A stretch of 64,000 nt of DNA from Minisyncoccota bacterium. Its GTDB lineage: Bacteria > Patescibacteriota > Minisyncoccia > Phycocordibacterales > UBA2100. Where the stretch lies: the NCBI GenBank assembly GCA_043780835.1, contig JAYWCB010000002.1, forward strand, positions 27,466-91,465, given 5' to 3'. A program made the position numbers and the translations under genes. The notes under the pieces were generated by a model. It was not told where the DNA came from. It did not search any database and was given only the letters and a program-made list of their open reading frames with translations. Position 1 is the first letter of the stretch. Every line of letters begins with the position of its first letter. This document shows, in pieces, positions 2,933 to 56,310 of this stretch.

Positions 2933-4258
2933 TCAGTTAACCTCCCCGAGCGATGCAACGCCAAGCCTTCGGCGAGCGGTTTCTCCCCGAAAGAGTTCTC
3001 GATGACGTTGCGGCTTTTCTTCGCGGGCGATCGGTGCGTGGTGTGCAACCTTACTCAATTGCGGCGCCATTGCATGAAAGCTGGATCCGAGGAACACCGC
3101 GTGTTTGCCGTATTTTCCGCAAATCTCATCGAGGCTCGCATACACCGATTTGGCAGCTTCGGTTTTCAAGACAGATCCGAACAGATCAAGCTGCGTATTA
3201 TTAGCATCCTGTAATTTCATAAGCACGATGCCGGTTGCACGATACAGCGTCCCCTTTTTAAAAACTTTCAAGAAATACTCCCGCACCGCCGAAAGAATCT
3301 CGCTCGGGATACACGTGGCATGCGAAAGCTTGATCTCGCATCCGTGATACTTAAATTCCTGTGTCTTCAGAAAAAAGAATATCTCCGTCGTCGCGAGACC
3401 CCAGCGCCGGGCCTTGATGCATGCGTTTTCAACATTCTTGGAAAGCTGTGCCCCCACGAAGCGCGGATCGGACGACGGCGGCGTAAATGTTTTTGTCTTG
3501 CTAATCGATTGATATGATTCCCTTCCTTCAGTATCCAGTTCGTACACCACCTGGCCGTTGAGCTCGTGCCAAATCTCACGATACGGCTTCGCCATATTTT
3601 TTTGAATCCACGCTTCGTCTTTCTTTGCGTACTCGTATGCTGTTTTTACGCCGAGCTGCTGCAGGTACGCAGCGGTATTGGGACCGATCCCCCACACACC
3701 GACGGTGGGGGTTTTGCGAAGAAACGATTCTGCGGCAGATAATGGAATCAGGGTAAGGCCGTGCGGCTTTTTCCATTTTGATCCGACTTTCGCGAGCACC
3801 TTTGTGGGCGCGACGCCGATTGAAAACGAGAGTCCGAGATCGCGCTCGAGCTCATCCTGCAGGCGCGCTGCGATTTTTGCATATGGCATGCGGAGCGTAC
3901 GGCGCAACCCTGTGAGGTCGGCAAAGCACTCATCTATTGAATACTCCTCGACCGTGGGTGTGTACCGGCGCACGATCTCATACATACGATTGGAAAACAG
4001 ACTGTATGTTTCGTAGTCAGACGGCAGAATAATTGCATCGGGACACACCTTTCGCACTTCGTGCAACGCCATGCCCCGCTTCACGCCGCGCGCCTTCGCT
4101 TCGTATGTGCACGCGGATACAATGCCGCGCTCTTTTCCGGTGATTACCGCCTTGCCCCGAAGCGACGGATCTTTTGCGACCTCGCATGCCGCAAAGAAAG
4201 AGTCACCGTCGATGTGGAGGATTGCGCGCGGAAATGATCGTAGTGAGCCCCAGGCCAT
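2933..4258 (-). CDS. dinB: DNA polymerase IV (Y-family translesion polymerase)
   Basis: ILHIDGDSFFAACEV (catalytic DxD, compare E. coli IIHVDMDCFFAAVE), SACTYEAKARGVKRGM, KVLAKVGSKWKKPHG. Likely start at MAWGSL (4258); the ORF extends to 4291. Confidence 0.8.
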   Translation of the reverse strand: MAWGSLRSFPRAILHIDGDSFFAACEVAKDPSLRGKAVITGKERGIVSACTYEAKARGVKRGMALHEVRKVCPDAIILPSDYETYSLFSNRMYEIVRRYTPTVEEYSIDECFADLTGLRRTLRMPYAKIAARLQDELERDLGLSFSIGVAPTKVLAKVGSKWKKPHGLTLIPLSAAESFLRKTPTVGVWGIGPNTAAYLQQLGVKTAYEYAKKDEAWIQKNMAKPYREIWHELNGQVVYELDTEGRESYQSISKTKTFTPPSSDPRFVGAQLSKNVENACIKARRWGLATTEIFFFLKTQEFKYHGCEIKLSHATCIPSEILSAVREYFLKVFKKGTLYRATGIVLMKLQDANNTQLDLFGSVLKTEAAKSVYASLDEICGKYGKHAVFLGSSFHAMAPQLSKVAHHAPIAREEKPQRHRELFRGETARRRLGVASLGEVN

Positions 4259-4263
4259 ACCCC

Positions 4264-4533
4264 TCACACGAAACGACCTGATCGCAGACAATCAGGAATT
4301 CGTCGCTTCAGCGCAGTTTGTGCTCCAGCCGACCTTTTGAGACGATCCTCTCGCTTTTTAGCATCTGTCTGCGATAGGTACGCCTCGTAGTACACGAGTT
4401 TGAGCGGTGCTCTAAACTTCGTTGATTTGTTAAGACCATTATTATGTTCGGATAATCGACGCTTCAAGTTATTGGTATAGCCTGTGTACATATTTTGATC
4501 TTTCAAGCTTTGTAATATATATACGTAGAACAT
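4264..4533 (-). CDS. YhbQ-like (UPF0213) GIY-YIG nuclease family protein
   Basis: FYVYILQS...NMYTGYTNNLKRRLSEHNNG GIY-YIG motif, about 89 aa like E. coli YhbQ. Confidence 0.7.
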   Translation of the reverse strand: MFYVYILQSLKDQNMYTGYTNNLKRRLSEHNNGLNKSTKFRAPLKLVYYEAYLSQTDAKKREDRLKRSAGAQTALKRRIPDCLRSGRFV

Positions 4534-4558
4534 AATAAGGTCGTTTCGTGTGTAGGGG

Positions 4559-6106
4559 TTATTGAATAACCGACTCGCCTTCTATCTCGTGGAGAAAACG
4601 TTTGAACTCCTCGCGTGAGAGCGGGCGGATACGGGAACAATTTGCGGGATCGCGCATGTAACGCGAAAAGATCTTATAACGATCATGATCAAACTCGGGA
4701 ACGGTTGTGCGTGATTCCACATCAATATCCGAGGTCTTGATATCGCCGATGAGACACCAGTTGTCGAGCACAAATGAGTGCCGTTCCAGATCGTCTTTTT
4801 TCTCTTCGATCACGACCGCACCCGGATACGGCCACGCTTTCAACCGTCGGGCGCGAAACGCCGATTCGAAACGTTTGTTGTAACCGTCGCTTTTTTCTTT
4901 CATCTGACAGGCGCCTTTACAGGTACCGATCTGATGCCCAAAGCACGCGCCTTTCCCCAATTCGAGGCCGAGAATTTTTTTGCAGAGCGTGTGCGCAGCG
5001 GCGGCGAGCGAGAGGAATTCCTTTGCCTGCGCGATTGATTTAAAAATGCCGAGTATATCGCGGTATTCGTGCGCACCGATTCCTTCAACGCGCGAGAGCT
5101 CGAGCGAGGCATATGCACCGCACATTGACCGCCGCGCAACCACAATCTCTTTGCGCTTCACCAACATACGGTTATAGCGCGGCATCATCGATTTAATAAG
5201 CGAGGATTCCAAAAGCAGTGCCGACAGTTCACCGGCGGTTTCGCGGGCTTCCACACGCACCACATGCTGACTCATAATCGCTTCTTTCGAAGATGAGTGA
5301 CTGCCGGAGAAATGTGAGAGCACGCGAGTTTTGATGTTGCGACTCTTACCCACATAGAGAGGTACCTGCTCTTCGTCATAAAAGATGTACACCCCCGGAC
5401 TGTCGGGGAGATTACTAATTGTCTGCATATCCAAAAACGGCGGGAGCGTGTGCCGCTGCAAAAGTGTGTCGATTGCTGTTTCGAGCTTCGCCCCATACTT
5501 CTCGTGCGAATACTGCAGAAATTGCCAGAGTACGTGCGCATCATCAAATGCACGGTGCCGATCTGTGCAGGTAAAACTGTAGCGTCTAATCACACTCGAG
5601 AGATCGTGTTTCTTTGCGCGCGGGTAGAGCGCGCGAGAGAGTCGCACGGTGCACACGCACCGCGCATTGAATCGTTTTCCCACACGCTTGAATTCGTTCT
5701 TGATGAATCCATAATCGAACCGTGCGTTATGTGCCACGAATATCGCACCTTCGAGCAATCGCTCGACGGTGTCTGCAATATCTTCGAAGGACGGGGCGGC
5801 ATCGACTTCGCTTTGTTGAATACCCGTGAGTGCGGATATCCACGGTGATATCGCACGACCGCCCGGATTCACGCATGAGCGAAATGTTTCTGTGCATACG
5901 CCGTCTTCGATGCGAAGAATGCCGATTTCGATAACACGGCTGAACGTGGCGCTTGTCCCTGAAGTCTCAACATCGACGATTGCGAATGTTTTGCCCTTTA
6001 GATATTCCATACCTCGTAGCGCGTTGGCACGTACAGATGCGCACGCAAGAGGCGACGAATAAAGGTACTGATACGCGGCGTGAGTGTGATGGAAATTCTC
6101 ATACAA
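4559..6106 (-). CDS. DnaQ-like 3'-5' exonuclease fused to a UvrC/Cho-like GIY-YIG endonuclease domain
   Basis: Exo I motif FAIVDVETSG and Exo III H..DA. Central GIY-YIG GVYIFYDEEQVPLYVGKSRNIKTRVLSHF. Start may be MEYLKG (6010). Confidence 0.7.
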   Translation of the reverse strand: MYENFHHTHAAYQYLYSSPLACASVRANALRGMEYLKGKTFAIVDVETSGTSATFSRVIEIGILRIEDGVCTETFRSCVNPGGRAISPWISALTGIQQSEVDAAPSFEDIADTVERLLEGAIFVAHNARFDYGFIKNEFKRVGKRFNARCVCTVRLSRALYPRAKKHDLSSVIRRYSFTCTDRHRAFDDAHVLWQFLQYSHEKYGAKLETAIDTLLQRHTLPPFLDMQTISNLPDSPGVYIFYDEEQVPLYVGKSRNIKTRVLSHFSGSHSSSKEAIMSQHVVRVEARETAGELSALLLESSLIKSMMPRYNRMLVKRKEIVVARRSMCGAYASLELSRVEGIGAHEYRDILGIFKSIAQAKEFLSLAAAAHTLCKKILGLELGKGACFGHQIGTCKGACQMKEKSDGYNKRFESAFRARRLKAWPYPGAVVIEEKKDDLERHSFVLDNWCLIGDIKTSDIDVESRTTVPEFDHDRYKIFSRYMRDPANCSRIRPLSREEFKRFLHEIEGESVIQ

Positions 6107-6318
6107 GTGGTGATAATTACGAAATTAAATCTTTGTAATATGGGGCACGAGGAACCGGCTAACTTTGCGGGCGACCCGAGGCGATCGCACCTTCCCCCAG
6201 ACTTCTACGTTGGTAATGGTTGGCATCGAGGTAATGAGCGAGGACTCAATGACGTATCGTTGGATGGAAAGCCAGTTGTCTATTTTCTTCATATCGTAAT
6301 GTGGATGGTTGGTGATGA

Positions 6319-6897
6319 TTAGTACTTGCGCACGACTGCCGTAACGACCGCTTCGATCCGAAAGGACTCTTTCGGATAAATGGGTTTGTAACGCTCATTG
6401 GCCGGTTCGAGATATACCTTGTCTCCGTCTTTGCGGTAATACTTCATGGTGTACTCGCCGTCGACACTCGCGATTACAATCTGTCCCGGCTTGTACGATG
6501 CACGGCGCTCTACGATCACCATATCGCCTTCGCGAATTCCCGCATCGATCATGGAGTCGCCTTTTACTTTCAAGATGTAGCTCGATTCTTTGTTCGGCGT
6601 GAGGTATTCGTCGAAACTGAGCACGTCGAGCAATTCTTCTTCGGCCGGAGACGGGAATCCCGCTTCGACAAGTCCGAGGTATTTCAACCCCTGTTCCTCT
6701 TCGAAGTTATGCGGAATCAGATGCCCCGTTTTGTCTTTGCGCACGAGCCCTGCATCGATCATTTGATCGAGTTTGTAATTGACTGCGCTCTTAGTTTTGT
6801 AGCCCCATAGTTTCTGCAATTCCGAAAACGACGGCATGCGCTTGTGTTCGCGATAGAACTTTGCCATTTCGTCTCGGTACGCTGCGAAATCTTCCAT
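6319..6897 (-). CDS. lexA: LexA repressor (S24 peptidase, SOS regulator)
   Basis: N-terminal wHTH (SFSELQKLWGYKTKSAVNYKLDQMIDAGLV), cleavage-site region, S24 motif VKGDSMIDAGIREGDMVIVE. Confidence 0.85.
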   Translation of the reverse strand: MEDFAAYRDEMAKFYREHKRMPSFSELQKLWGYKTKSAVNYKLDQMIDAGLVRKDKTGHLIPHNFEEEQGLKYLGLVEAGFPSPAEEELLDVLSFDEYLTPNKESSYILKVKGDSMIDAGIREGDMVIVERRASYKPGQIVIASVDGEYTMKYYRKDGDKVYLEPANERYKPIYPKESFRIEAVVTAVVRKY

Positions 6898-6912
6898 ACG
6901 TGAATTATATTA

Positions 6913-6924
6913 GAACGATCGTTC
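6913..6924. promoter_or_regulatory. Candidate LexA operator (Cheo/SOS box type), palindrome GAACGATCGTTC
   Basis: Perfect GAAC-N4-GTTC inverted repeat 16-27 nt upstream of the lexA start and upstream of the divergent nuclease gene. Confidence 0.55.
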
Positions 6925-6953
6925 TGACGCAAGCGTGAAGCTGTGGATATCCA

Positions 6954-7565
6954 TTGGGAGTGCATACTGTGCCTATGATTCGCGCACGAAACAGACCACT
7001 TCGTCTTATCATTGCGGTCTTGTTTGTTGTTATTGCAGCGTACGTTGCAAAGGTTCCACTTCCTCAAACAAACCCCACACCCTCTGGGTCGTCTGCAACC
7101 ACTCCGACATCAACAAGTGCCTGGTACCCCATCGTGCGGGTTTCAGACGGAGACACAATCGTAATTAAAAAAGACGGCGCCGATGTACACGTGCGATTGA
7201 TCGGTATTAACACACCCGAAGTAAATGGTCCGTATACAAAAGAACAGTGTTACGGCAAAGCGGCCTCTGCCGAAGCAAAGAAAATTATGGGAGTGGGATC
7301 GGTGCGCATTGAAACGGATCCGTCGCAGGATCTTTACGATCAATACCATCGCCTGCTCGCATACGTGTACGTTCCGGCAAACATTCGCCCAGAAGGAATC
7401 ATGGTGAACGAATATATGGTGCGCGAAGGATTTGCCCGCGAATACACGTACAAGAAACCGTACGCGCACCAAGCGGAGTTCAAAGCCGACGAAGTGACGG
7501 CGAAATCCGAGAACAAAGGATTATGGGCGGCGTGTCCGCCTGCGCAGGCAGGCACGTCTTCATAG
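6954..7565 (+). CDS. Membrane-anchored/secreted thermonuclease (staphylococcal nuclease, SNase-like)
   Basis: DGDTIVI..G..V.VRLIGINTPE, YGKAAS, LLAYVYV, EYMVREGFA. N-terminal TM LRLIIAVLFVVIAAYVA. Confidence 0.75.
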   Translation: MGVHTVPMIRARNRPLRLIIAVLFVVIAAYVAKVPLPQTNPTPSGSSATTPTSTSAWYPIVRVSDGDTIVIKKDGADVHVRLIGINTPEVNGPYTKEQCYGKAASAEAKKIMGVGSVRIETDPSQDLYDQYHRLLAYVYVPANIRPEGIMVNEYMVREGFAREYTYKKPYAHQAEFKADEVTAKSENKGLWAACPPAQAGTSS

Positions 7566-7619: not shown

Positions 7620-9071
7620 ATGCAGTGCATCCCGAAATCCGGCACGATATTTTTGTGTGCCACTGCGCTTCTCACATCTTTTTTTTTGTTTAACAAAGTA
7701 AACGCGGACATCGGACCGAACACCACGGGATGCGGATCAGGCAAACACATGTCGACATCCGATGACGTTGCAAAAGGACTACCTGCAAACACATGCGTCG
7801 ACGATTCTATATCGTCCTACTTAAACGGTGGGTGCGGTTCAAACCCGTACGACATGCTGCAATCCGGCGGATTCATAGGAGGCGGCCAAGTTCGCCCTGT
7901 TTCCAGCGGTAGCAGCGGTAGCGCCGACCCTGCACTACGTCAAGGTATTGATCCGGCTCTCGCATGCCGTCTGTTTAAATTTTTTGAAGCGACAAAAGCA
8001 AAGGGCTGCACAGTAAAAATTATCAGCGCATACCGAAGCGCTCAACAACAGGAAGATATGTGCGGTACCGGGCGATCAGGATGTGCCGCCGCCGGCAGAT
8101 CGTGTCATCAGTACGGACTCGCCGTAGATGTTCAGACAAGCTGTATCGGATGGATGCGCGCAGCAGCGCCACAGTTCCAATTGGTTTTTCCCTACTATGG
8201 TCAGCACATTCAATGCGCCGAACATCCTGTCGCTGCATGCTCTACGAATACGAAGCCGTGTAATGGGGGTGTAAAAATCACTCCTGATCTTTCCCGCATT
8301 CCAAATCCCTCGCAAATCCCGGATTCATATTTCGTCCCACCGCCCGCCGCAACAAATCCATTCAGCAGTTCCAACTCGTTCATGCCAAATGCTCCGGTTC
8401 CGCCACCACCTTATTCGCCACAATCGTCAGGATCAAATACATCTTCGTACCCGACGAACACTTCGACAAACTCGTCGGGAATGAATGATATGAACGGTAC
8501 CGCAAACACGATCCCCCTACCAACAGCAACATCGAGTATTTTCACCGTGCCACCACCATATCCCTATTCACTCGGCACATCCTCGAATCCATCTAGTGGA
8601 CCGAGTGCGTATCAAAAGCTCGAGTTGATCGCACGGGACCCAGACGCAAGCAGCTCTTCGCAAAGCACACCGACGTCTGTTTCTGCACCGACACAGCTCA
8701 ACGGAGACCTCAACGACATCCAAAGCGGCTCAACTGATGGAACAAATTCGAGCCTCAATACTGTTGAGGCCAACACAACCGGTGGAACGAACGAAACAAA
8801 TCCTGCCGGCGGCACCATCGCCAAAAATTCTGTCTCGGTAAACCCCATCCATGTAACCGAAACTTTTTCGGGTTCGCAGCCGACTATGGTGCAACCTTCA
8901 CAAGCCGCGACTTCCGGATTGAACGCGGCCGCCAGCAAATCTCTGATTCTTGCACTTCTCACGACGCTTCGCGACTTACTCGTCTCTTACCTTCATTTCC
9001 TGCAATCGCGTTCTACCTACGGATTTCAAGGTTCGTGGCAGGTCCCCGCCGCAAGCGCTACGTACCGCTAA
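7620..9071 (+). CDS. Secreted peptidase M15-like (VanY/D,D-carboxypeptidase superfamily) protein with long Ser/Thr/Pro-rich low-complexity tail
   Basis: Signal peptide. IISAYRSAQQQEDMC ... HQYGLAVDV (M15-like Zn ligand pattern). About 250 aa S/T/P/N-rich C-terminal region. Confidence 0.4.
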   Translation: MQCIPKSGTIFLCATALLTSFFLFNKVNADIGPNTTGCGSGKHMSTSDDVAKGLPANTCVDDSISSYLNGGCGSNPYDMLQSGGFIGGGQVRPVSSGSSGSADPALRQGIDPALACRLFKFFEATKAKGCTVKIISAYRSAQQQEDMCGTGRSGCAAAGRSCHQYGLAVDVQTSCIGWMRAAAPQFQLVFPYYGQHIQCAEHPVAACSTNTKPCNGGVKITPDLSRIPNPSQIPDSYFVPPPAATNPFSSSNSFMPNAPVPPPPYSPQSSGSNTSSYPTNTSTNSSGMNDMNGTANTIPLPTATSSIFTVPPPYPYSLGTSSNPSSGPSAYQKLELIARDPDASSSSQSTPTSVSAPTQLNGDLNDIQSGSTDGTNSSLNTVEANTTGGTNETNPAGGTIAKNSVSVNPIHVTETFSGSQPTMVQPSQAATSGLNAAASKSLILALLTTLRDLLVSYLHFLQSRSTYGFQGSWQVPAASATYR

Positions 9072-40592: not shown

Positions 40593-41027
40593 TCAGGCGT
40601 GCGTATGAATGGATTCGATGGTGGGATGAATGCCGTGTTTGTGGTGACGATGCAACATCATACTAATGAACAGTATGAGCAGTGCCGAAGTCACACCGAG
40701 TCCGATCGGTATGGTGAAGTCGTTGCCTCCAAACCCGAAAATGGCATTGATTGAGCACAGGAAATCGCAATCAAGCGGTTTTGATCCGTTCGATTTTGCT
40801 TCCGCGGGTCGCCACGTGATGTCGGCTGCAGTAACTCCCTGTTGGGAAGCAGCTTGTGCGAGCGACGCAACCATCGCGTCTACCTGTGCCGCAGGGATGG
40901 ATGACGAGCGTGGATCTTTTAAAATTTCGGCACGAATCGCTTGGGATAGTCCGGTAGATTGCGCACCTGCAGCAAACGGGAGCGCGAGTGCAAGCGTGAG
41001 AATAGTTGCAACGAATGACGCTTTCAT
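40593..41027 (-). CDS. Secreted protein with His-rich C-terminal TM segment (hypothetical)
   Basis: Signal peptide MKASFVATILTLALALPFAAGA. C-terminus ALLILFISMMLHRHHKHGIHP. Confidence 0.35.
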   Translation of the reverse strand: MKASFVATILTLALALPFAAGAQSTGLSQAIRAEILKDPRSSSIPAAQVDAMVASLAQAASQQGVTAADITWRPAEAKSNGSKPLDCDFLCSINAIFGFGGNDFTIPIGLGVTSALLILFISMMLHRHHKHGIHPTIESIHTHA

Positions 41028-41095
41028 ATGAATACAATCAGTATACAGGAGTGTTCGGCGGTCGATTGCATTGATGCGCTTATAGTGTGGATGAA

Positions 41096-41908
41096 TCATT
41101 TCTTACCGATTGCCACCTCAATTTTTGCAAGATTCGACGCGACCGCCGCCTTGAATGCGGCCATACCCGCTGGAGCGGCAGCATATCCGTTGCCCGAATA
41201 CGCGCGTACAAATTGATCTTCAGTAAGTACACTGACCGCTTTTTCGGCGCGACGTGCCCACGTTTCTGCCTCTGTGAATGATTGGGTTTCATACAGCGCG
41301 ACCGCATATTCATTCATGAGCCACGGATTTTCCGGAAATTGCTGCATACCATCTACGAGCATATGCAACGCGCGATCAACGTGACCGCCTTTCAACATGA
41401 CCCATGCATAGTCGTTCATCGCAGACCAATTGAGCGACCCGTGAGGATTTAATCTAAGAAACGTAAGGAAATCACGACCCGCAGCGTCGTATTGTCCCGA
41501 AAATCCGTACGCAAGCGCGCGGATATAAAACGGCTTGTCGAAAGCTTCGCCCTGCAACGCGATTTCTTCATCAGCATAGACCCGTGCCTTTACAAGCTCA
41601 TTACGTAAGAACGCGATGCGTGCCAATTGGTAGTGAGCGCGCGGATACACAGGATCAATGTGCACGGTTTTAGAAAAGAAATATTCAGCGCGCATAAGAT
41701 CCTGGTGATCCGTTGCATCCATGAACTTCATGCCGTAACGAAATCCCCGCTCCCCACTCGGAAATCGCGAGAACGCGATCTTATCGCAGGCATACTCCAT
41801 TTCCCACCGCATTGTGTGCATATGTCCGGATGTTATACCGAACGCTATTATGGCCAGCGAGAGGCCTACTACAGCAGCGAGTTTATACGCCCGTCGTTCA
41901 CGTATCAT
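41096..41908 (-). CDS. N-terminally anchored TPR-repeat protein (paralog of 52035-52817 and 52834-53637)
   Basis: N-terminal TM, TPR-like repeats, conserved ...PENPWLMNEYAVALYE... block shared with the two paralogs. Confidence 0.5.
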   Translation of the reverse strand: MIRERRAYKLAAVVGLSLAIIAFGITSGHMHTMRWEMEYACDKIAFSRFPSGERGFRYGMKFMDATDHQDLMRAEYFFSKTVHIDPVYPRAHYQLARIAFLRNELVKARVYADEEIALQGEAFDKPFYIRALAYGFSGQYDAAGRDFLTFLRLNPHGSLNWSAMNDYAWVMLKGGHVDRALHMLVDGMQQFPENPWLMNEYAVALYETQSFTEAETWARRAEKAVSVLTEDQFVRAYSGNGYAAAPAGMAAFKAAVASNLAKIEVAIGKK

Positions 41909-41911
41909 GTG

Positions 41912-42370
41912 TTACCGCGGTGACGAACCTTGTACGATGGGCAGGTTCTCGACAATCCATTCGTTGGTCCCGCCACCGATGCGTCTCAAATTCAGATACC
42001 CGTGATGCTCGAGATAACCGTAGCCAACACCGGATTCACGTCCGCCTGCACAAATCAGCACGATCGTCTTTCCTTTTTTTGGAAACTGGGAATACCCATC
42101 AAAAAAGCGCGGAAGCGGTACATTGACCGCGCCGAGTGCATGCCCTTTTTCGTATTCGCTTCCTGATCGCACGTCAACAAACATGTACGAATCGGGATGT
42201 GCGAGAAAAGCAGCCTGAAATTCCGTGGGCGAAATATCTTTCGTAGCCGGTTCAATGATATGCAGATTCTGAAGCGGCGTAAGATAGATAATGAGCACAC
42301 TAGCAACAACGCCAATGATAAGAAAAAAGATTGCGATTAACGAAATACGCATATAAGAAAAGTATAGCAA
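41912..42370 (-). CDS. Membrane-anchored rhodanese-domain protein (sulfurtransferase-like); paralog of 53669-54196
   Basis: N-terminal TM. Rhodanese core FVDVRSGSEYEKGHALGAVNVP...IVLICAGGRES (active-site Cys loop CAGGRES). Confidence 0.7.
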   Translation of the reverse strand: MLYFSYMRISLIAIFFLIIGVVASVLIIYLTPLQNLHIIEPATKDISPTEFQAAFLAHPDSYMFVDVRSGSEYEKGHALGAVNVPLPRFFDGYSQFPKKGKTIVLICAGGRESGVGYGYLEHHGYLNLRRIGGGTNEWIVENLPIVQGSSPR

Positions 42371-43045
42371 CTATTTTAAAGTGTCGACGCGATGTATGAG
42401 CGACTGAATATAGTCAATCGCTACGCGCGTGCCGTTCCCCCTATTCCCCTGCACAAGAATGGACTTCCCCGCTCCTTCAATTACAACACCCGGCGTTGCA
42501 TCAACCCCCGCACCTTTGCCCTCAGCAATGTCGTCGTCCACAATCTTTTTCGCAACACCACTTGCAACACAGGTTCGCACGGGGGCGACTGCAATTCCGA
42601 CGGCTTCTGCTGCCGCATATCCCGCATTATCCGACTGCGACGTCGCAACAGGTTGATCAACTTTGAATAAGCGCGATACGTATTTCCAATATGTTTCTTC
42701 CCCATCAATACGCGCGATGCACTCTGCGATCTGCGCTTTCAAATATGCACCAGTATGTTCTTCGCGTGGAAAATTTTTATATATCACAACGATGCCGCCC
42801 CCATATGCAGCGTGAAGTTTTCCATAAGATCTTTCGTGAAAGTCCTTGCAGTGTGGACACTCGTAATCTGTAAATATCGTCAGTGTAATCGGCGCAGCGA
42901 GATTTCCTATCACATGCCGGGCTGCGGTGTGGACTGCCGATTGTGACTCTTGTCTACCGGTGTACACGGTCGTGAACACCAATACCGCAGTGATGACGAC
43001 TCCGATGACCGCTATCAGTGCAGTAATAAAGCGCACCGGTTTCAT
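42371..43045 (-). CDS. Membrane-anchored DsbA-like thiol:disulfide oxidoreductase; paralog of 54201-54899
   Basis: N-terminal TM. Thioredoxin CPHC active site in FTDYECPHCKDFHE. Confidence 0.7.
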   Translation of the reverse strand: MKPVRFITALIAVIGVVITAVLVFTTVYTGRQESQSAVHTAARHVIGNLAAPITLTIFTDYECPHCKDFHERSYGKLHAAYGGGIVVIYKNFPREEHTGAYLKAQIAECIARIDGEETYWKYVSRLFKVDQPVATSQSDNAGYAAAEAVGIAVAPVRTCVASGVAKKIVDDDIAEGKGAGVDATPGVVIEGAGKSILVQGNRGNGTRVAIDYIQSLIHRVDTLK

Positions 43046-43047
43046 GC

Positions 43048-44211
43048 TTATCGATTTGATCCAGTGAAGTCACGAGTCTGCCACCCAAGACGAATAAGCA
43101 ATTTCTTGAAGTTGGGATCTTTTGCCGCGAGCGCTACGAGATAGCGTTTTTTTCCTCGCGCGTCGTCTTTTTCACGCGCAAAATAACGGAACGCACTTGA
43201 ATGTTCATACGCATTGGATGCATACATCGGTGAAAGAATCTTCCTGATGTCAGCAGCGCGCTTTTCTCCGTACACTTGATTCAAAAAGCGTGCATATTGG
43301 AAGCGCGCCAGTCCGTCGTCAGGAGTACCCTTTACAACGGCGTACGAGGCAAGCACTTGAGAGAAGATATGTTCCGTTTTTTCTGGCGTACTTTCACCGA
43401 TCACCGCGAGACTACGCTCTATAGATGCGCGAAGTAACAGAGTCGGCGGTACGAGGTTTGCCGTATTGGGGTCGTCTTTCGAACGCGCGAGATTATGTTC
43501 CGCCGCATCAATACGACGGCGCAATTCTGTCAGGTATTCTTTTTGTTCGGCATCAGAAAGCTTCTGGTCTTTGCCGGTAAATGAGCGTTCAAGTTTGGTT
43601 GCATACCAATCGGCAACATACAGTTCTGAAAATGCGAGCGGATAGAAGTCTGAGGCGTATGCAAAGAGTTCGCGCTGTGTAAGCGACAGATCTTTCGGAT
43701 GGTAGAATGTTGCGAACGGAGGCTGGGAAAATATCTGATCCTCGAACACATTTCCAAATTCCTGCCAAAATCGGCCGATAGTCTGTATCGCGTATGCGCG
43801 CACAATGGGAGTGGCTTGACCGTCGCGTGCAATATTCATGTACAAATCAATTGCACCACCCACATTGCCGCGATCATACTCCGCGAGTCCGATTTTATAT
43901 CGTATTTGATCTTTTTGTTCTTTATCAGGCGCAGTGCCGATTGCCGATTGATAGAGCGCGATTGCGCTCGTTGCATTACCGAGCCGGCGCTGGTTTTCTG
44001 CATCTGCAAATGAGCCATTCCCTTGCATGAGATGCATGTAGGGGTCATTGGTACTGGTGTATTTGCTTTTGCTCGGAAAAATCCCACTCAAAGGAATCCC
44101 CATAAGAGTGAGCACAAGAAAAACCACAACGATAATCGCAAGGATTGCTCCGAGCGCATTTCGAATCGGGTGTTTTCGTACGGTGGTTTCGGGTTTCATG
44201 TATTGAATCAT
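43048..44211 (-). CDS. N-terminally anchored helical-repeat (TPR-like) protein; paralog of 54907-56031
   Basis: N-terminal TM. Shared block IRYKIGLAEYDRGNVGGAIDLYMNIA vs IRFKIALATEESGDFANAIAQYKSIA. Confidence 0.4.
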   Translation of the reverse strand: MIQYMKPETTVRKHPIRNALGAILAIIVVVFLVLTLMGIPLSGIFPSKSKYTSTNDPYMHLMQGNGSFADAENQRRLGNATSAIALYQSAIGTAPDKEQKDQIRYKIGLAEYDRGNVGGAIDLYMNIARDGQATPIVRAYAIQTIGRFWQEFGNVFEDQIFSQPPFATFYHPKDLSLTQRELFAYASDFYPLAFSELYVADWYATKLERSFTGKDQKLSDAEQKEYLTELRRRIDAAEHNLARSKDDPNTANLVPPTLLLRASIERSLAVIGESTPEKTEHIFSQVLASYAVVKGTPDDGLARFQYARFLNQVYGEKRAADIRKILSPMYASNAYEHSSAFRYFAREKDDARGKKRYLVALAAKDPNFKKLLIRLGWQTRDFTGSNR

Positions 44212-44492
44212 CCATCATCTGCGTCACCTGATCCACCTGCATCGCCTCCACAATCATCATCGTCGCCACCGGTTGACACATCGACCACTATCGCCTCTGC
44301 ATGAGCAACGGGCACATCGAGGTGAACTCTATCTGCTATCAAAGCGTGCTCGGGATCGTGAATGGATGTGTGAGGACTGATTGCAAAAAAAAGACCGAGA
44401 AAACTGAAAAAGATTCCGCTCGCCCACGAGACTTGTTTGATCAGACGTTTTGCGCGGCGCTCGATGAATACCATGCATTCATCATATCTCAA
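44208..44492 (-). CDS. Small membrane-anchored peptide with Gly/Asp/Cys-rich C-terminal tail; paralog of 56035-56310
   Basis: Basic N-terminus, TM helix ASGIFFSFLGLFFAISP, conserved VAHAEAIVVDVS, tail TGGDDDDCGGDAGGSGDADDG. First gene of the minus-strand operon. Confidence 0.4.
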   Translation of the reverse strand: MRYDECMVFIERRAKRLIKQVSWASGIFFSFLGLFFAISPHTSIHDPEHALIADRVHLDVPVAHAEAIVVDVSTGGDDDDCGGDAGGSGDADDG

Positions 44493-52034: not shown

Positions 52035-52817
52035 TTATTCACGAATCCCCTTTGCTGTGGCTGCTGATTCTATTTTCTGTAGATTTTGATGTGCTGCGTT
52101 TCGTAACGTTTCAAGGCCGGTTTCTGCCGCATCCGGAGCATTTCCGGGATATGCTGCGTGCCACTGTGCAGGTGTAATACCATCAACCGCCGCTGTTGCA
52201 CGCCGTGCCGCAACAAGCGCTTCGCGCAGTTTTCCTTGTTCAAAAAAGATCGTAGCGCGCACGCTCAGAAGCCATGGATTGTCTGGATACCGACTAAGTC
52301 CCGCGTCGACTACGATAAGCGCTTCGTCCAGCTTTCCTGTTTTGATCAAAACCCAGGCATAGTCTGTTCGGCCTTCCCAACCACCGGGATTCAGCTCCAC
52401 ATACGTTTTGTAATCTCGGGCGGCAGCATTGTAATCATTGAGATACCCCTCTATAAGACCGCGTAGATAGTACGCACTTGAACGAGATGTGTGGGTGTTA
52501 TTTTGGATTTCAATATTTACTTCTGCAAGTGCTTCGTGATACTCGCCGTTCAAAAAATGAATCCGCGCCAATTGATGGTGCACGAGCGGATATTGTGGAT
52601 CCAGGTGCGCCGCCCGTGAAAAGAAATATGCAGCTTCCGCTAAATCATATTCTGACTCATTCGGTCGGTCGATATGCTGCAGGCCGTATGTATAGGCGAG
52701 CTCTGCGCGCGGATGAAGTTTGAGATGCAGTCGTTCCCGTATGGCTCCGGGATCAATAAGAAATAGTCCGATAATAAATACAGCGGCTACAGTACATGAA
52801 ACGAGGGAGCGAGTCAT
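52035..52817 (-). CDS. N-terminally anchored TPR-repeat protein (paralog of 41096-41908)
   Basis: TM plus TPR; shared YPDNPWLLSVRATIFFEQGK block. Start trimmed to MTRSLV. Confidence 0.5.
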   Translation of the reverse strand: MTRSLVSCTVAAVFIIGLFLIDPGAIRERLHLKLHPRAELAYTYGLQHIDRPNESEYDLAEAAYFFSRAAHLDPQYPLVHHQLARIHFLNGEYHEALAEVNIEIQNNTHTSRSSAYYLRGLIEGYLNDYNAAARDYKTYVELNPGGWEGRTDYAWVLIKTGKLDEALIVVDAGLSRYPDNPWLLSVRATIFFEQGKLREALVAARRATAAVDGITPAQWHAAYPGNAPDAAETGLETLRNAAHQNLQKIESAATAKGIRE

Positions 52818-52833
52818 GAGCGCATTGTACTGT

Positions 52834-53637
52834 TTAGCGCGTACTAGATGTCGCGTTCTTTTGTATAGCCGCATGGATAAGCTTGATATTTCCCGCTATT
52901 GCTTCGCGCAGTTTTTCTATACCCTTTGCACCCATAGAAGGGTCGTTGCCTGGATTTACTTTGGCCCAATCATCTGGTTCAAGCAGTTGCGCCGCTTTGG
53001 CGGCTGATTCTGCAACGGCACGTGATTCATCGTAACGACCCATCTCATAGAGCGCCGTCGCTTTACTGTTCAGCAGCCATGCGTTTCCCGGTGTATATGC
53101 CAAGCCGGTGTCGAGCGCGACAAGCGCCTCCGTAAATTTATGCTCCTTCAGTAATATCCATGCGTAATCGTTGAATCCCGGCCAATTGTGCGACCCGCCT
53201 TTTAAGTATGTTTCGTAATCAGCCTGCGCCTCGGGATATTTGCCGAGGAATCCGTACGTAAGAGCGCGTACATAATACGAACTCGGTCTGGAATCAGGGT
53301 GGAGGTTTATTTGCAGTGTAATTTCGGCTAGCGCGGCATTGAGCATCCCTATGATGAACGACGTTCTCGCGAGCTCATGATATGCCATCGGATAGTTCGG
53401 ATCGAGTGCGACGGTTTTTAAATAGTACTGTCGCGCTCGACGAACATCGTATGCGCGATTCGGGACGGGTCCAAAATGATGCTCGGCAATTTCAAAAGCG
53501 TGTGCCGCCGTCGGTGAATGCATAAACGACACGTCTTCGTACGTATTTAAGATTTTTGTGCGCAAGGGCATTCGAAATGCGATCGCAAATACGACAGCAC
53601 ATAAAGACACAACAAGCATCATCTGTCGCGTGACCAT
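52834..53637 (-). CDS. N-terminally anchored TPR-repeat protein (third paralog)
   Basis: TM plus TPR; TPGNAWLLNSKATALYEMGR block. Start trimmed to MVTRQM. Confidence 0.5.
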   Translation of the reverse strand: MVTRQMMLVVSLCAVVFAIAFRMPLRTKILNTYEDVSFMHSPTAAHAFEIAEHHFGPVPNRAYDVRRARQYYLKTVALDPNYPMAYHELARTSFIIGMLNAALAEITLQINLHPDSRPSSYYVRALTYGFLGKYPEAQADYETYLKGGSHNWPGFNDYAWILLKEHKFTEALVALDTGLAYTPGNAWLLNSKATALYEMGRYDESRAVAESAAKAAQLLEPDDWAKVNPGNDPSMGAKGIEKLREAIAGNIKLIHAAIQKNATSSTR

Positions 53638-53668
53638 GACGCAAGTATACTGCGGTTCCCTCGCGGTG

Positions 53669-54196
53669 TTACTGATGCTCATCGACACCGGAAAATCCAT
53701 GTGGAATGTTATTTCCTTCTATCGGCAGTCCTTCGAGTGACCAATTTTCGAGCCCTCCTTTGATGCGAATAAGATTGAGAAAGCCCCAATTTTCCAAATA
53801 TCCATACGCGATTCCGGCAAGCCTGCCGCTCGTGCAAATCAGCGCAATCTTTTTACCGTGCTTCGGCAAGGTAAAATGTTCATCAATGAGATTTTCAATC
53901 GGTATATTTATCGCGCCAACTGCGTGGGCGGAATTGTAGACAGTCGTCGATCGCACATCGATCAACATATACTGATCGCGGTGCTGAGAATAATCAGCAT
54001 AAAACTCCTTCGGATCGATATCGTTTGATATCGGGGCGATCAGTGTGAGGTGTTTGAGTGGCGTCAGATAGATGAGCAGTATCGTCACAACAATGACGCC
54101 GATGAGTGATGCAATAAACATGAAGCGATCATCGAAAAGACTTACAGAGCCGTCTGCCTCTGCTTTTGCTCGATTCGAAAAATATCGTTTTAACAT
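53669..54196 (-). CDS. Membrane-anchored rhodanese-domain protein (paralog of 41912-42370)
   Basis: LIDVRSTTVYNSAHAVGAINIP...IALICTSGRLAG (Cys loop CTSGRLA). Confidence 0.7.
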   Translation of the reverse strand: MLKRYFSNRAKAEADGSVSLFDDRFMFIASLIGVIVVTILLIYLTPLKHLTLIAPISNDIDPKEFYADYSQHRDQYMLIDVRSTTVYNSAHAVGAINIPIENLIDEHFTLPKHGKKIALICTSGRLAGIAYGYLENWGFLNLIRIKGGLENWSLEGLPIEGNNIPHGFSGVDEHQ

Positions 54197-54200
54197 AAAA

Positions 54201-54899
54201 TTATTTTTTCCCTAAGAGATAGCTGATACTCGTCGCAATCTGCGAACGGTAATCCCCTTTTATGATGATACTGCGTCCTGCGGATTTCAAAACAATAGAC
54301 GGTGTTACGTCGAGTCCGGCAATTGCACCTTGGACCATGTCACGCCTTACCCGATCGGCGGGAGTTTGATTTTTTACACATTGATCGAATGACGCCGGAT
54401 TGACCCCGACGTTCACTGCGAAACGCGTGAGCGTCACCGGATCGACTGGTCCCTCGAGCCGAGGAGAGCTGTAGACATCTGTTACGAAGGTATCAAATGC
54501 CGCCGCGCCACGATCATTAAATACGCACTCGGCGGCAATCGCCTCACCATACGCACCCGTGTGCTTTGGCAGCGGCAGATGACGAAATGCGATCAATAAT
54601 GTATTGGCGAACTCTTTCTGCAATGCGGGGAGAGTCTGCAAATAGAGATGTTTGCAATACGGACAATCAAGATCCGAATACACAATCATTTGAACCGGAG
54701 CTTTCAAATCACCGGAATATATATGATCGTCTGCGGCCACACCAATAACCGCAAGCGGTGATTGATCATCAACGGTCCGGACCTGTTCGAGCGCACGCTT
54801 ATTATGCAAAACAGCCAGTAGAATAAATACACCGATACCGACCGCAGAAATTACTAAGATTAGAATTTTCGAATCACGTTTGATTTTGGAACTTCGCAT
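54201..54899 (-). CDS. Membrane-anchored DsbA-like thiol:disulfide oxidoreductase (paralog of 42371-43045)
   Basis: CPYC active site in YSDLDCPYCKHLY. Confidence 0.7.
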   Translation of the reverse strand: MRSSKIKRDSKILILVISAVGIGVFILLAVLHNKRALEQVRTVDDQSPLAVIGVAADDHIYSGDLKAPVQMIVYSDLDCPYCKHLYLQTLPALQKEFANTLLIAFRHLPLPKHTGAYGEAIAAECVFNDRGAAAFDTFVTDVYSSPRLEGPVDPVTLTRFAVNVGVNPASFDQCVKNQTPADRVRRDMVQGAIAGLDVTPSIVLKSAGRSIIIKGDYRSQIATSISYLLGKK

Positions 54900-54906
54900 G
54901 GAACCG

Positions 54907-56031
54907 TTACTGTGCGAAGTCGCTTGGCTGCCAGCCGAGCGATATCAGATACGCCTTGAATGAAGGTGCAATATCGGCAATTTTAATCAGTGCCATATGA
55001 TTATATTGCGCCTGATTGTTTCTTCGAACACTTCTGAAGAAGCCTTCGACTGATTGAACATACGTATTTTTAACACCCGTCACAGGTTTGAGCGTGGACA
55101 CGGTAGATATAATTTCGTCCGCTCGCGATTCGCCATAGAACGTCGCGAGTGCAGCCGCGTATAAATAGCGCGGGTAGCTGTCCTGCCCCGGTACGGTGGC
55201 GGCAGTAGCTGAAAGGCTGAGCGCGTCTCGGAAAGGCGCAATCACGTCCTCAATCTTTGCAACACCTGCAGTCGCAAGTTTACGCTCCACAATTCCTTCT
55301 CTTGTGAGGGCATCTATAAGCGGACCGGTTTCGTTTGCATCTTTGCGCATGCGATCAAGCTCGGGTTGCGCCTGCGATTGTAGTTCTTTAATTTTCGCGA
55401 TGTCTGCAATGCCTGCGGGACTGGTACTTGCGTTGTGTAATGTTTTTGATAGGTCCGTCGCATACCAATCCGCTTGACGCATAAGAGAAGGAGCGAGCAG
55501 GTAGAGCGAAGAAGCGTACTCATTCAAGCGTCTGAGCGCCATTTCGGTATCGACACCTTGCGCCATCTCTGCGTAGGGTGAATCTTTGAAAATCTCATCG
55601 CTCACCTCAGGATGGGAATAATTATATGTGTAGTAGAACGATGCGAGCTGTTGCACGGCATACGCTCTTATTTGCTTGAAATATCGCTCATTTGAAGCGA
55701 TTGATTTATATTGAGCTATAGCGTTGGCAAAATCCCCGCTCTCCTCAGTCGCGAGCGCAATTTTAAACCGAATTTGTGCTTCTGCTTGCGGATCAGAAGC
55801 ATTGGCAAGAGATGCCTGAAGTGCCTGCTTTGCCTCATCATACTGGCCTGCTTTCATGAGAGTCATCGCGTGAGAAAACGACTGATCTTCTTGGGTCAGT
55901 ACTTTATACGGCGTGCGAGATGCATCGTATTGATTTTGAGATCTTACGGCGGCAAACCAATACACCAAAAGTGCAACCGCGATAACGAAGAGGACGCCGA
56001 GTGCGAGTGATATATCTTTTCGTAGATTCAT
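54907..56031 (-). CDS. N-terminally anchored helical-repeat (TPR-like) protein (paralog of 43048-44211)
   Basis: TM plus helical repeats. Confidence 0.4.
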   Translation of the reverse strand: MNLRKDISLALGVLFVIAVALLVYWFAAVRSQNQYDASRTPYKVLTQEDQSFSHAMTLMKAGQYDEAKQALQASLANASDPQAEAQIRFKIALATEESGDFANAIAQYKSIASNERYFKQIRAYAVQQLASFYYTYNYSHPEVSDEIFKDSPYAEMAQGVDTEMALRRLNEYASSLYLLAPSLMRQADWYATDLSKTLHNASTSPAGIADIAKIKELQSQAQPELDRMRKDANETGPLIDALTREGIVERKLATAGVAKIEDVIAPFRDALSLSATAATVPGQDSYPRYLYAAALATFYGESRADEIISTVSTLKPVTGVKNTYVQSVEGFFRSVRRNNQAQYNHMALIKIADIAPSFKAYLISLGWQPSDFAQ

Positions 56032-56034
56032 ACA

Positions 56035-56310
56035 TTAGCCGCAACTACCGCCACTACCACCACTATCACATCCGGATCCACTGTCACTTCCTCCGGCGCT
56101 TCCGGCTCCGGAGTCAACCACTTCTGCGTGAACAGTTCCTGCGCCCAACACAGTGTCGCTCAAATGAGCAGATGATTTTGGCGAAGCCGTATAAAAGAGT
56201 ACGGTAAAAAATCCCACGGCTATGATGGAAGCTGCGGTTATCTTTCGGTAGTATCTGGAAAACGTCGAAATACCTTGTACGAGAAATGCCATATACGTAT
56301 TATTCCACAA
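56035..56310 (-). CDS. Small anchored peptide with Gly/Ser/Cys-rich C-terminal tail (candidate RiPP/TOMM-type precursor)
   Basis: TM AASIIAVGFFTVLFYTASP, conserved TVHAEVVDS, tail GAGSAGGSDSGSGCDSGGSGGSCG. Divergent from the YcaO-SagB genes. Confidence 0.45.
   Translation of the reverse strand: MWNNTYMAFLVQGISTFSRYYRKITAASIIAVGFFTVLFYTASPKSSAHLSDTVLGAGTVHAEVVDSGAGSAGGSDSGSGCDSGGSGGSCG

Follow-up and report, generated by a model that had tools for sequence, protein, structure and literature searches.

The window analysed here, a 64-kb stretch of DNA from a Paceibacteria (Parcubacteria, candidate phyla radiation [CPR]) bacterium, contains a compact gene cluster in which lexA heads a series of genes on one strand, spaced no more than 26 nt apart: two small open reading frames (ORFs), an exonuclease fusion gene, a gene for a GIY-YIG protein, and dinB. 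An SNase-like thermonuclease gene diverges from the other side of the lexA promoter. As judged from its sequence, the cluster is an SOS (DNA-damage) operon of an ordinary kind that represses itself, in a tiny uncultured Parcubacteria bacterium. The gene names in the first-pass annotation agree with the domains and the LexA score obtained from Pfam and NCBIfam, but the single small ORF that it placed between lexA and the exonuclease fusion is actually two ORFs, both conserved.

The lexA gene (6319 to 6897, minus strand) encodes a 192-aa protein for which Pfam, NCBIfam, and a structure model indicate a winged helix-turn-helix (HTH) N-terminal domain and an S24 self-cleaving domain (Pfam Peptidase_S24, 9.4e-29). 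The protein scores 118.1 bits against TIGR00498, marginally passing the cutoff of 110.95. Residues A79-G80, S115, and K152 are invariant across 19 homologues and align with A84-G85, S119, and K156 of E. coli LexA, and the phmmer alignment runs from residue 20, equivalent to E. coli residue 24, to cover E. coli residues 24 to 197. A Pfam search did not detect LexA_DNA_bind in the N-terminal domain; the predicted fold of this domain comprises helices at residues 4 to 18, 24 to 31, and 36 to 48 and a hairpin at residues 52 to 62 (pLDDT about 70 to 80), and the best full-length structural matches of the model are LexA structures 3k2z and 3jso. We also observed that the C-terminal domain is unusually UmuD-like.

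Both small ORFs were recognized by conservation. Small ORF A (6125 to 6292, minus strand; 55 aa, beginning MKKIDNWLSIQRYV) is kept in about 17 relatives, with indels in frame, and a Pfam search placed it in no family. Small ORF B (5998 to 6102, minus strand; 34 aa, ending in PTRYEVWNI), which had no significant Pfam match, runs 13 nt past the exonuclease start and is conserved even where the exonuclease gene is absent (loci L005, L024, L043, and L044). The exonuclease fusion (4559 to 6010, minus strand; 483 aa), identified from Pfam and homologues, joins a DEDD (DnaQ-like) exonuclease (RNase_T, 1.1e-29) to a Cho/UvrC-N-like GIY-YIG domain (GIY-YIG, 1.3e-7); its open frame reaches TTG 6106, and homologues make ATG 6010 the most likely start. 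The order of the two domains is that of E. coli Cho and the Actinobacteria DEDD-exonuclease/Cho fusions (PRK07883 group, PRK10545), but unlike those proteins it scores far under the curated cutoffs (246 versus 495 and 175 versus 367, on the PRK07883 and Cho models NF005906 and NF007833). Its two Pfam domains give it the architecture of the Cho-type fusions, but on these scores it is not a curated member of the group. E. coli cho is SOS regulated. Several relatives carry the exonuclease half alone.

The stand-alone GIY-YIG protein (4264 to 4533, minus strand; 89 aa; Pfam GIY-YIG, 3.5e-17) is encoded by a gene that also lies between lexA and dinB in loci L023 and L027. The last gene of the series, dinB (2933 to 4258, minus strand), is assigned to a DinB-type Y-family DNA polymerase by Pfam (IMS, 2.7e-46; IMS_C, 1.9e-13), NCBIfam, and synteny; its open frame reaches TTG 4291, and its most likely start is ATG 4258, with GAGGGG ahead of it. 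Among NCBIfam models the polymerase best matches DinB, at 241.6 bits (cutoff, 371), while UmuC gives 145 bits, and its steric-gate motif reads DSFFAACE.

From lexA through dinB, the successive gaps are 26, 22, −13, 25, and 5 nt. There is no second GAAC-N4-GTTC box upstream of the repair genes, the sole near-match in the cassette (4699 to 4710) being intragenic with one mismatch, and in a generic scan neither promoter-like nor terminator-like matches rose above shuffled expectation. The earlier proposal that lexA and the nuclease and polymerase genes form one autoregulated transcript is supported by this co-oriented, tightly packed arrangement without a second box. Among 80 related loci, dinB lies downstream of lexA in 78, frequently with overlapping stop and start codons. 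We infer co-transcription of lexA through dinB from these sequence features and their conservation, and the comparison indicates that what the lineage shares as a core is lexA-dinB, the genes between them being variable inserts. No signatures of uvrA, uvrB, uvrD/pcrA, ruvB, or recN occur in the 64-kb window, and recA was found neither in the window nor in the fetched loci.

The lexA promoter has a −35 hexamer, TTGCGT (6927 to 6932, minus strand), read from the sequence, and a −10 hexamer, TATAAT (6904 to 6909, minus strand), read from the sequence and from relatives. The predicted LexA operator GAACGATCGTTC (6913 to 6924, not assigned to a strand) sits between them, within the 17-nt spacer, and is enclosed in the extended palindrome AGAACGATCGTTCT (6912 to 6925). 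In relatives, the −35 element TTGAC(A/T/G) begins 8 to 9 nt ahead of the box, TATACT or TATAAT lies 2 to 4 nt past the box in most cases, and the first ATG follows the box by 14 to 16 nt in 60 of 78 loci. The lexA start of the window is preceded by the box, as the first-pass annotation had it, at a spacing of 15 nt rather than the 16 given there. Because the lexA ATG is only 6 nt downstream of the −10, the lexA transcript is probably leaderless. The promoter did not appear in the generic scan output because its −35 matches TTGACA at only three of six bases.

The perfect palindrome described earlier is present and is the sole exact GAAC-N4-GTTC copy in the window, and the view that it serves the lexA promoter as a LexA operator is supported by position and by conservation among relatives. 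Comparison with related CPR genomes, an idea already put forward with the palindrome, was strongly positive: an exact box precedes lexA at a nearly always identical offset in 72 of 80 related Paceibacteria/Kaiserbacteria loci with L015 included (before that locus was added, 70 of 79 relatives had one within 200 nt upstream), and most loci without an exact box show a near-match of one or two mismatches at the unchanged position. The operator arms are conserved, the inner four bases vary, and the flanking bases drift. Two operator flavours can be distinguished among relatives, TA-GAACG..CGTTC-TA and GGT-GAAC....GTTC-ACC. LexA residues 37 and 41 separate them perfectly, and residues 33, 40, and 42 nearly so; all of these residues are in or adjoin the predicted recognition helix, although their co-variation with the operator could stem from two clades instead of co-evolution.

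Within the window alone, the palindrome might pass for a chance occurrence or a site for an unrelated regulator, given that one exact site was observed versus 1.25 expected (at least one occurred in 66 of 100 shuffles) and that one-mismatch sites are not enriched (29 versus 30.7 expected). A single site in the window is no more than chance, and its significance rests on position and conservation. Across 849 kb, 81 exact boxes were found versus about 13 expected, and 72 of the 81 are at lexA promoters. The comparative data contradict the chance or unrelated-regulator reading, which we regard as extremely improbable: the box keeps its place within the promoter in 72 of 80 relatives while flanks and inner bases drift, a second lexA paralogue in locus L063 has its own copy, and the box equals a known LexA motif (PMC4951493). 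A further suggestion was that the same operator also controls the divergent gene, which would make the secreted thermonuclease an SOS-induced, DNA-scavenging enzyme. This gene (6963 to 7565, plus strand, including its own −10; Pfam SNase, 2.4e-22) encodes an SNase-like protein with an N-terminal hydrophobic anchor and does stand back to back with lexA both in the window and in the nearest relatives (L001, L003, and L004), the two start codons being separated by 58 to 79 nt. RNA polymerases at the two promoters would have overlapping footprints, which makes some indirect interference conceivable. Homologues favour ATG 6975 over TTG 6954 as the SNase start, which widens the divergent spacer from the 56 bp reported earlier to 77 bp, and since its −10 (CATACT, 6963 to 6968) lies six nt ahead of that ATG, the centre of the box is about 57 nt upstream of the SNase start. 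Between the end of the box and this −10 are 39 nt, which leaves the box outside the SNase core promoter. The design of −10, 6 nt, and ATG is conserved in L001, L003, L004, L016, and L051 whatever the box distance; the SNase ATG lies at different distances from the box across relatives (42, 63, 88, 112, 121, and 207 nt) while the spacing between box and lexA is fixed; and in 14 loci where the SNase gene is not linked to lexA, the 250 nt upstream of it contain no box with up to one mismatch. LexA control of the thermonuclease is thus unsupported and in our judgment very unlikely, and the SNase gene probably lies outside the LexA unit.

A different question is whether the repressor is the global SOS regulator. 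The protein might instead be a polymerase accessory of the UmuD kind that has gained a DNA-binding domain of the LexA type, much as in Acinetobacter UmuDAb. It would then act not as a global SOS repressor but locally, regulating its own translesion operon of umuDC-like form, with the cleaved C-terminal fragment possibly modulating the co-expressed polymerase. The C-terminal domain opens directly past the cleavage site with AGFPSPA, which we take to be a UmuD hallmark, and it is 40 to 41% identical to solved UmuD′ structures versus 36 to 39% to LexA C-terminal domains. Against the UmuD model NF007621 the protein scores 107.9 bits and its relatives 104 to 109, which for this protein is a near miss of the cutoff of 110, while the LexA proteins of E. 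coli and B. subtilis reach 85 and 71; on TIGR00498, the candidate and its relatives reach only 113 to 118 bits versus 290 for E. coli LexA and 298 for B. subtilis LexA. In 78 of 80 loci its gene is placed directly upstream of a Y-family polymerase gene, as in umuDC. Neither the window nor the relatives' 12-kb flanks, which represent a small fraction of the genome, contain a further exact box except at the second lexA paralogue. UmuD, however, is short, lacks a DNA-binding domain, and has a UmuC-type partner, whereas the protein here has a full 70-aa LexA-type winged-HTH domain, passes the LexA equivalog cutoff, and is paired with a polymerase that is DinB-like rather than UmuC-like by score (242 versus 145 bits) and by steric gate. 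As cited in PMC7739468, a published study by Sanchez-Osuna et al. (2017) regards the LexA of Patescibacteria as an SOS regulator. We consider the accessory-protein explanation unlikely, and a LexA-type repressor of this bacterium very probably represses its own operon.

The lexA promoter contains one further element, a DnaA-box-like 9-mer, ATATCCACA (consensus TTATCCACA), found by motif search at 6942 to 6950 on the minus strand, 9 nt upstream of the lexA −35. The element fits TTATNCACA, and its position is conserved: a match with at most one mismatch is present in 33 of 79 loci, with a modal position of −26 from the LexA box, and de novo k-mer counting recovers the same motif, the top k-mers all being fragments of GTTATCCACAGG. 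Elsewhere in the window and the fetched loci, the 9-mer is neither enriched nor clustered. In E. coli, DnaA and LexA co-regulate uvrB, recN, and dinJ (PMC6015884; review PMC8203912), likewise with DnaA-box-like 9-mers in LexA-controlled promoters. Unlike in those promoters, the element here is a single box at a fixed spot upstream of the −35, in the promoter of lexA itself and in a CPR lineage.

Comparison with known systems places most of these features on familiar ground. Jara et al. reportedly described, in 2003, lexA-dinB operons of Geobacter sulfurreducens in which lexA regulates itself and shares a transcript with a DinB polymerase gene; that system resembles the present one in both respects but is not known to have nuclease or small-ORF inserts. 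The Geobacter LexA motif, GGTT-N10-AACC, differs and is longer (PMC8565304). GAAC-N4-GTTC is the canonical LexA motif of Firmicutes and Actinobacteria, known as the Cheo/SOS box of B. subtilis DinR and M. tuberculosis LexA, and variants of it occur in Chloroflexi and Cyanobacteria (PMC4951493). The arrangement is less unusual than had been suggested. By sequence, the operator matches this motif in its inverted arms and 4-bp spacer and overlaps the lexA core promoter as it does in those phyla, and the repressor has the same two-domain form, Ala-Gly cleavage site, and Ser/Lys dyad. The differences are the marginal match to the LexA model, the apparently leaderless transcript, the CPR host, and the flanks of the box, which here follow one of the two flavours given above and not the cGAAC...GTTCg type. 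With umuDC and Acinetobacter UmuDAb the system shares an S24 self-cleaving protein, an AGFPSPA-type N terminus of the cleaved fragment, and a position directly upstream of a Y-family polymerase, and UmuDAb, whose type targets palindromes (PMC8565304), also has an extra N-terminal region and acts as a repressor; unlike in these systems, a true LexA-type winged HTH forms the N-terminal domain here, and the polymerase resembles DinB rather than UmuC. An SOS network in Patescibacteria, the same superphylum with the same regulator, is the subject of Sanchez-Osuna, Barbe, and Erill (Environ Microbiol 2017;19:3465), at least as that study is cited in PMC7739468 and PMC8565304.

Under the mechanism we propose, a LexA dimer would bind GAAC-N4-GTTC in the 17-nt spacer between −35 and −10 and block RNA polymerase. 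On DNA damage, RecA would stimulate self-cleavage of LexA at A79-G80 by the S115/K152 dyad, removing the DNA-binding domain and opening the promoter. The product would be a single polycistronic, probably leaderless mRNA encoding LexA, two small conserved proteins, the exonuclease/Cho-like fusion (presumably a proofreading-type exonuclease joined to a Cho-like incision nuclease), the small GIY-YIG nuclease, and the DinB translesion polymerase.

A bolder reading, which we offer as speculation and hold to be unlikely, is that the Paceibacteria lexA-dinB promoter integrates two replication-stress signals, LexA through GAAC-N4-GTTC and DnaA through TTATCCACA about 45 to 53 nt upstream of the start. 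The repressor would then be a LexA/UmuD hybrid whose UmuD′-like cleaved C-terminal fragment modulates the DinB made from the same leaderless mRNA, and this one operon might constitute most or even all of the SOS response in these minimal genomes.

The palindrome GAACGATCGTTC, which the first-pass annotation had placed at 6913-6924, does lie there and is the sole exact GAAC-N4-GTTC within the 64-kb window. Counts made in the window alone are uninformative. One exact box was seen against a mean of 1.25 by chance (at least one occurred in 66 of 100 shuffles), and one-mismatch boxes in the window were not in excess either (29 versus 30.7 expected). The case for a LexA operator rests on the position of the box and on other genomes.

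LexA homologues number in the thousands, the nearest of them named Paceibacteria, Kaiserbacteria, or Parcubacteria. Our comparison set comprised 80 genomic loci of relatives (L001 to L080), the encoded proteins being 59 to 96% identical to the window LexA. The comparison with LexA boxes of related CPR genomes that had been proposed as a check bore the operator out: of 79 testable loci, 70 carry an exact GAAC-N4-GTTC in the 200 nt upstream of lexA, and adding L015 makes it 72 of 80. Most loci without it hold a form with one or two mismatches at the same position (for example, GTAC half-sites in L023, L027, L047, and L066; GAGC-N4-GCTC in L018). The window and loci together (849 kb) contain 81 exact boxes, where about 13 would be expected, and 72 of these are at lexA promoters. 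The arms of the box are conserved among relatives, unlike the four bases between them and the sequence around the box; conserved arms around a drifting interior are the pattern of a protein-binding site. The Firmicutes and Actinobacteria have GAAC-N4-GTTC as their canonical LexA motif, variants of which occur in the Chloroflexi and Cyanobacteria (PMC4951493), and the window's operator is this same motif. The DNA-damage network of the Patescibacteria was the subject of an earlier study by Sanchez-Osuna, Barbe, and Erill (2017), as cited in PMC7739468 and PMC8565304.

The box is embedded in a compact promoter, which on the lexA strand of the window reads ATATCCACA - 9 nt - TTGCGT - ca - GAACGATCGTTC - taa - TATAAT - tcacgt - ATG, with the box occupying the whole 17-nt stretch from −35 to −10. 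In relatives, the −35 element is TTGAC(A/T/G), beginning 8 to 9 nt ahead of the box, and the −10 element is TATACT, 2 to 4 nt past it. The distance from box to first ATG is 14 to 16 nt in 60 of 78 distinct lexA upstream regions, and the ATG tracks the promoter even where the length of the protein N terminus differs. With only 6 nt from −10 to ATG, there is no space for a leader, and the lexA mRNA is therefore most likely leaderless. A generic promoter and terminator scan missed the window lexA promoter because its −35 matches only three of six bases; promoter-like and terminator-like sites were no more frequent there than expected, and the scan helps little either way.

The same design recurs through the window. 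In 16 ORFs of 60 aa or more, a −10 lies 5 to 7 nt ahead of the ATG, versus 0.8 in shuffles, and most of these 16, with their −10-like hexamers of the TATACT type, match predicted gene starts, among them 6897(−), 6975(+), 7620(+), 12533(−), 17330(−), 20600(−), 31766(+), 48146(+), 52004(−), and 53637(−). Operons in this genome seem often to begin in this way, which suggests that leaderless mRNAs are common here. Elsewhere in the window, 40593-44492 and 52035-56310 (minus strand) are paralogous clusters of membrane-anchored-looking proteins, 27 to 49% identical gene by gene.

The first-pass annotation had further read the box as shared with a divergent secreted thermonuclease (SNase) gene, which would place that gene under LexA control. 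The SNase gene (a staphylococcal-nuclease homologue on the plus strand, with its ATG at 6975 in agreement with homologue N termini) has its own −10, CATACT at 6963-6968, followed by 6 nt, and this design of −10, 6 nt, and ATG is also present in L001, L003, L004, L016, and L051. The end of the window box is 39 nt from the SNase −10. Across relatives, the box lies 42 to 207 nt from the SNase ATG but at a constant distance from lexA. Moreover, at the 14 loci where the SNase gene is more than 300 nt from lexA, no box with one mismatch or fewer was found in the 250 nt upstream of it. These comparisons assign the predicted operator to lexA and give no support to LexA control shared with the SNase gene; the tempting idea of an SOS-induced secreted nuclease should be dropped.

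A search for a wider regulon returned little. We found no signatures of RecA, DnaA, UvrA, UvrB, UvrD/PcrA, RuvB, or RecN in the window, and none of RecA or DnaA in the 80 loci. A metagenome scan for TAGAACGNNCGTTCTA gave 120 loci, of which only 9 have a lexA-like gene downstream and 2 have dinB; the remainder are unrelated (judged by eye, with N termini resembling those of transposases, TetR, RuvC, and PgpA). The scan yielded no regulon, only extra lexA-dinB examples from other lineages. The distant lexA-like genes on metagenome contigs L088, L115, L124, L126, L147, L179, and L189 (47 to 60% identical) use the promoter design TTGACA-TAGAACG..CGTTCTA-(−10), and dinB follows in L088, L115, and L124. 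Two others, L179 and L189, have a PgpA-like gene as the divergent neighbor of lexA.

The lexA gene (6897..6319, minus strand) encodes 192 aa, and its product passes the LexA equivalog model narrowly (118.1 versus a cutoff of 110.95). Its alignment to E. coli LexA spans residues 20 to 190, and the cleavage site A79-G80 and the dyad S115/K152 are invariant among 19 homologues. In the structure model (mean pLDDT of 67), the first 62 residues form three helices and a hairpin, and the best full-length structural matches are LexA structures 3k2z and 3jso. The operators come in two flavors, TA-GAACG..CGTTC-TA (33 loci, the window among them) and GGT-GAAC....GTTC-ACC (44 loci). Among L001 to L080, the LexA columns that best separate them are 37, 41, 33, 40, 23, and 42, which sit in or beside the predicted recognition helix, and, with residues 23 to 43 set against the operator flanks, the flavors are split perfectly by residue 37 (S/G with TA-GAACG, N with GGT-GAAC) and residue 41 (Y and K, respectively). 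This fits coevolution of the putative recognition helix and the operator, although the split could also stem simply from descent in two clades.

The C-terminal domain (residues 79 to 192) opens with AGFPSPA and is unusually UmuD-like. The window LexA, P0064, and P0104 score 104 to 109 bits on the UmuD model, where the LexA proteins of E. coli and B. subtilis reach 71 to 85, and only 113 to 118 bits on the LexA model, where canonical LexA reaches about 290. Together with the umuDC-like gene order, this would allow a hybrid LexA/UmuD role for the repressor.

The promoter holds a second candidate site. The 9-mer ATATCCACA at 6942-6950 (minus strand) matches the DnaA-box consensus TTATCCACA (PMC8203912). 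Such 9-mers lie 8 to 10 nt upstream of the lexA −35, often followed by GG, with a modal position of −26 from the box; 33 of 79 loci have a match to TTATCCACA at no more than one mismatch, and 54 do when two are allowed. When k-mers between −50 and −11 were counted without a preset motif, only fragments of GTTATCCACAGG emerged, and 11 of the 18 exact TTATCCACA copies are at lexA promoters. We rejected the reading of TTATCCACA as a general promoter element, since there is no overall enrichment (169 matches versus 134 to 168 expected) and none elsewhere in the loci or window. The DnaA-like 9-mer, as a predicted site, is specific to the lexA promoter in these genomes, and none was found at the seven distant lexA-like genes on metagenome contigs. 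Given that E. coli uvrB, recN, and dinJ are jointly regulated by DnaA and LexA (PMC6015884), a DnaA input at the lexA promoter via this predicted box is plausible. In L036, the 9-mer is inverted. Paralogous lexA pairs lie close together in L062 (11-565 and 6001-6555) and L063 (6001-6555 and 8172-8723); the second copy in L063 has one further exact GAAC-N4-GTTC upstream, at 7906, and an exact TTATCCACA at 7870.

Downstream of lexA, all on the minus strand, are small ORF A (6292..6125, MKKIDTWLDIQRY..., 55 aa, and 51 to 68 aa in about 17 relatives), small ORF B (6102..5998; 30 to 39 aa among relatives), an exonuclease/Cho-like gene (from ATG 6010, MEYLKGK; an RNase_T/DEDD exonuclease domain, then a Cho-like GIY-YIG region), a GIY-YIG protein gene (4533..4264, 89 aa), and the Y-family polymerase gene dinB (4258 to 2933, IMS and IMS_C domains). 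To the single small ORF noted earlier, the comparison adds a second conserved one: ORF B ends in ...PTRYEVWNI (...PTRYEVWNV among relatives), is present in much the same loci as ORF A, shares 13 nt with the beginning of the exonuclease gene, and is kept where the exonuclease is absent. Neither small ORF has a Pfam family. The longest ORFs begin at TTG 6106 (exonuclease, 4559-6106), TTG 4291 (dinB, 2933-4291), and TTG 6954 (SNase, 6954-7565); these starts are probably wrong and were rejected for ATG 6010, 4258, and 6975, respectively, on the basis of homologue N termini and Shine-Dalgarno-like sequences. For dinB, ATG 4258, preceded by GAGGGG, is the most likely start.

Successive gaps from lexA to dinB are 26, 22, −13, 25, and 5 nt. 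Of the 80 loci, 78 have a polymerase gene downstream of lexA, and the stop and start codons often overlap. The slot between the two genes may be empty or may hold the two small ORFs, an exonuclease (by itself or fused to Cho), a small GIY-YIG gene, another small ORF (YQLASFERVLRR), or a PemK/MazF-like toxin. The toxin or ..YQLASFERVLRR.. ORF occupies the slot in L021 (6570-6956), L033, L038, L045 (6566-7033), L080, L029, L046, L053 to L055, and L059. The junction looks like a gene-insertion hotspot. Because the polymerase is so constant and the intervening genes vary, the conserved unit is lexA-dinB, of which the window holds one of the richer versions. Tight gaps and the box at lexA in 72 of 80 loci uphold the autoregulated cassette of the first-pass annotation; co-transcription from lexA to dinB is itself something we infer.

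In sum, the evidence supports both the box and the autoregulated cassette well; they are real and of a known kind. Side observations that may be of greater interest than the box are the DnaA-like 9-mer, the resemblance of the C-terminal domain to UmuD, the pair of conserved small ORFs, and the leaderless design. The clean operator model, with its two flavors and matching recognition-helix changes, is of use in annotating SOS genes in uncultured Parcubacteria. Many independent genomes indicate that a CPR lineage with reduced genomes has retained a LexA switch of the classical self-repressed kind, with an operator of the Firmicutes/Actinobacteria type, and ties it almost invariably to a translesion polymerase.
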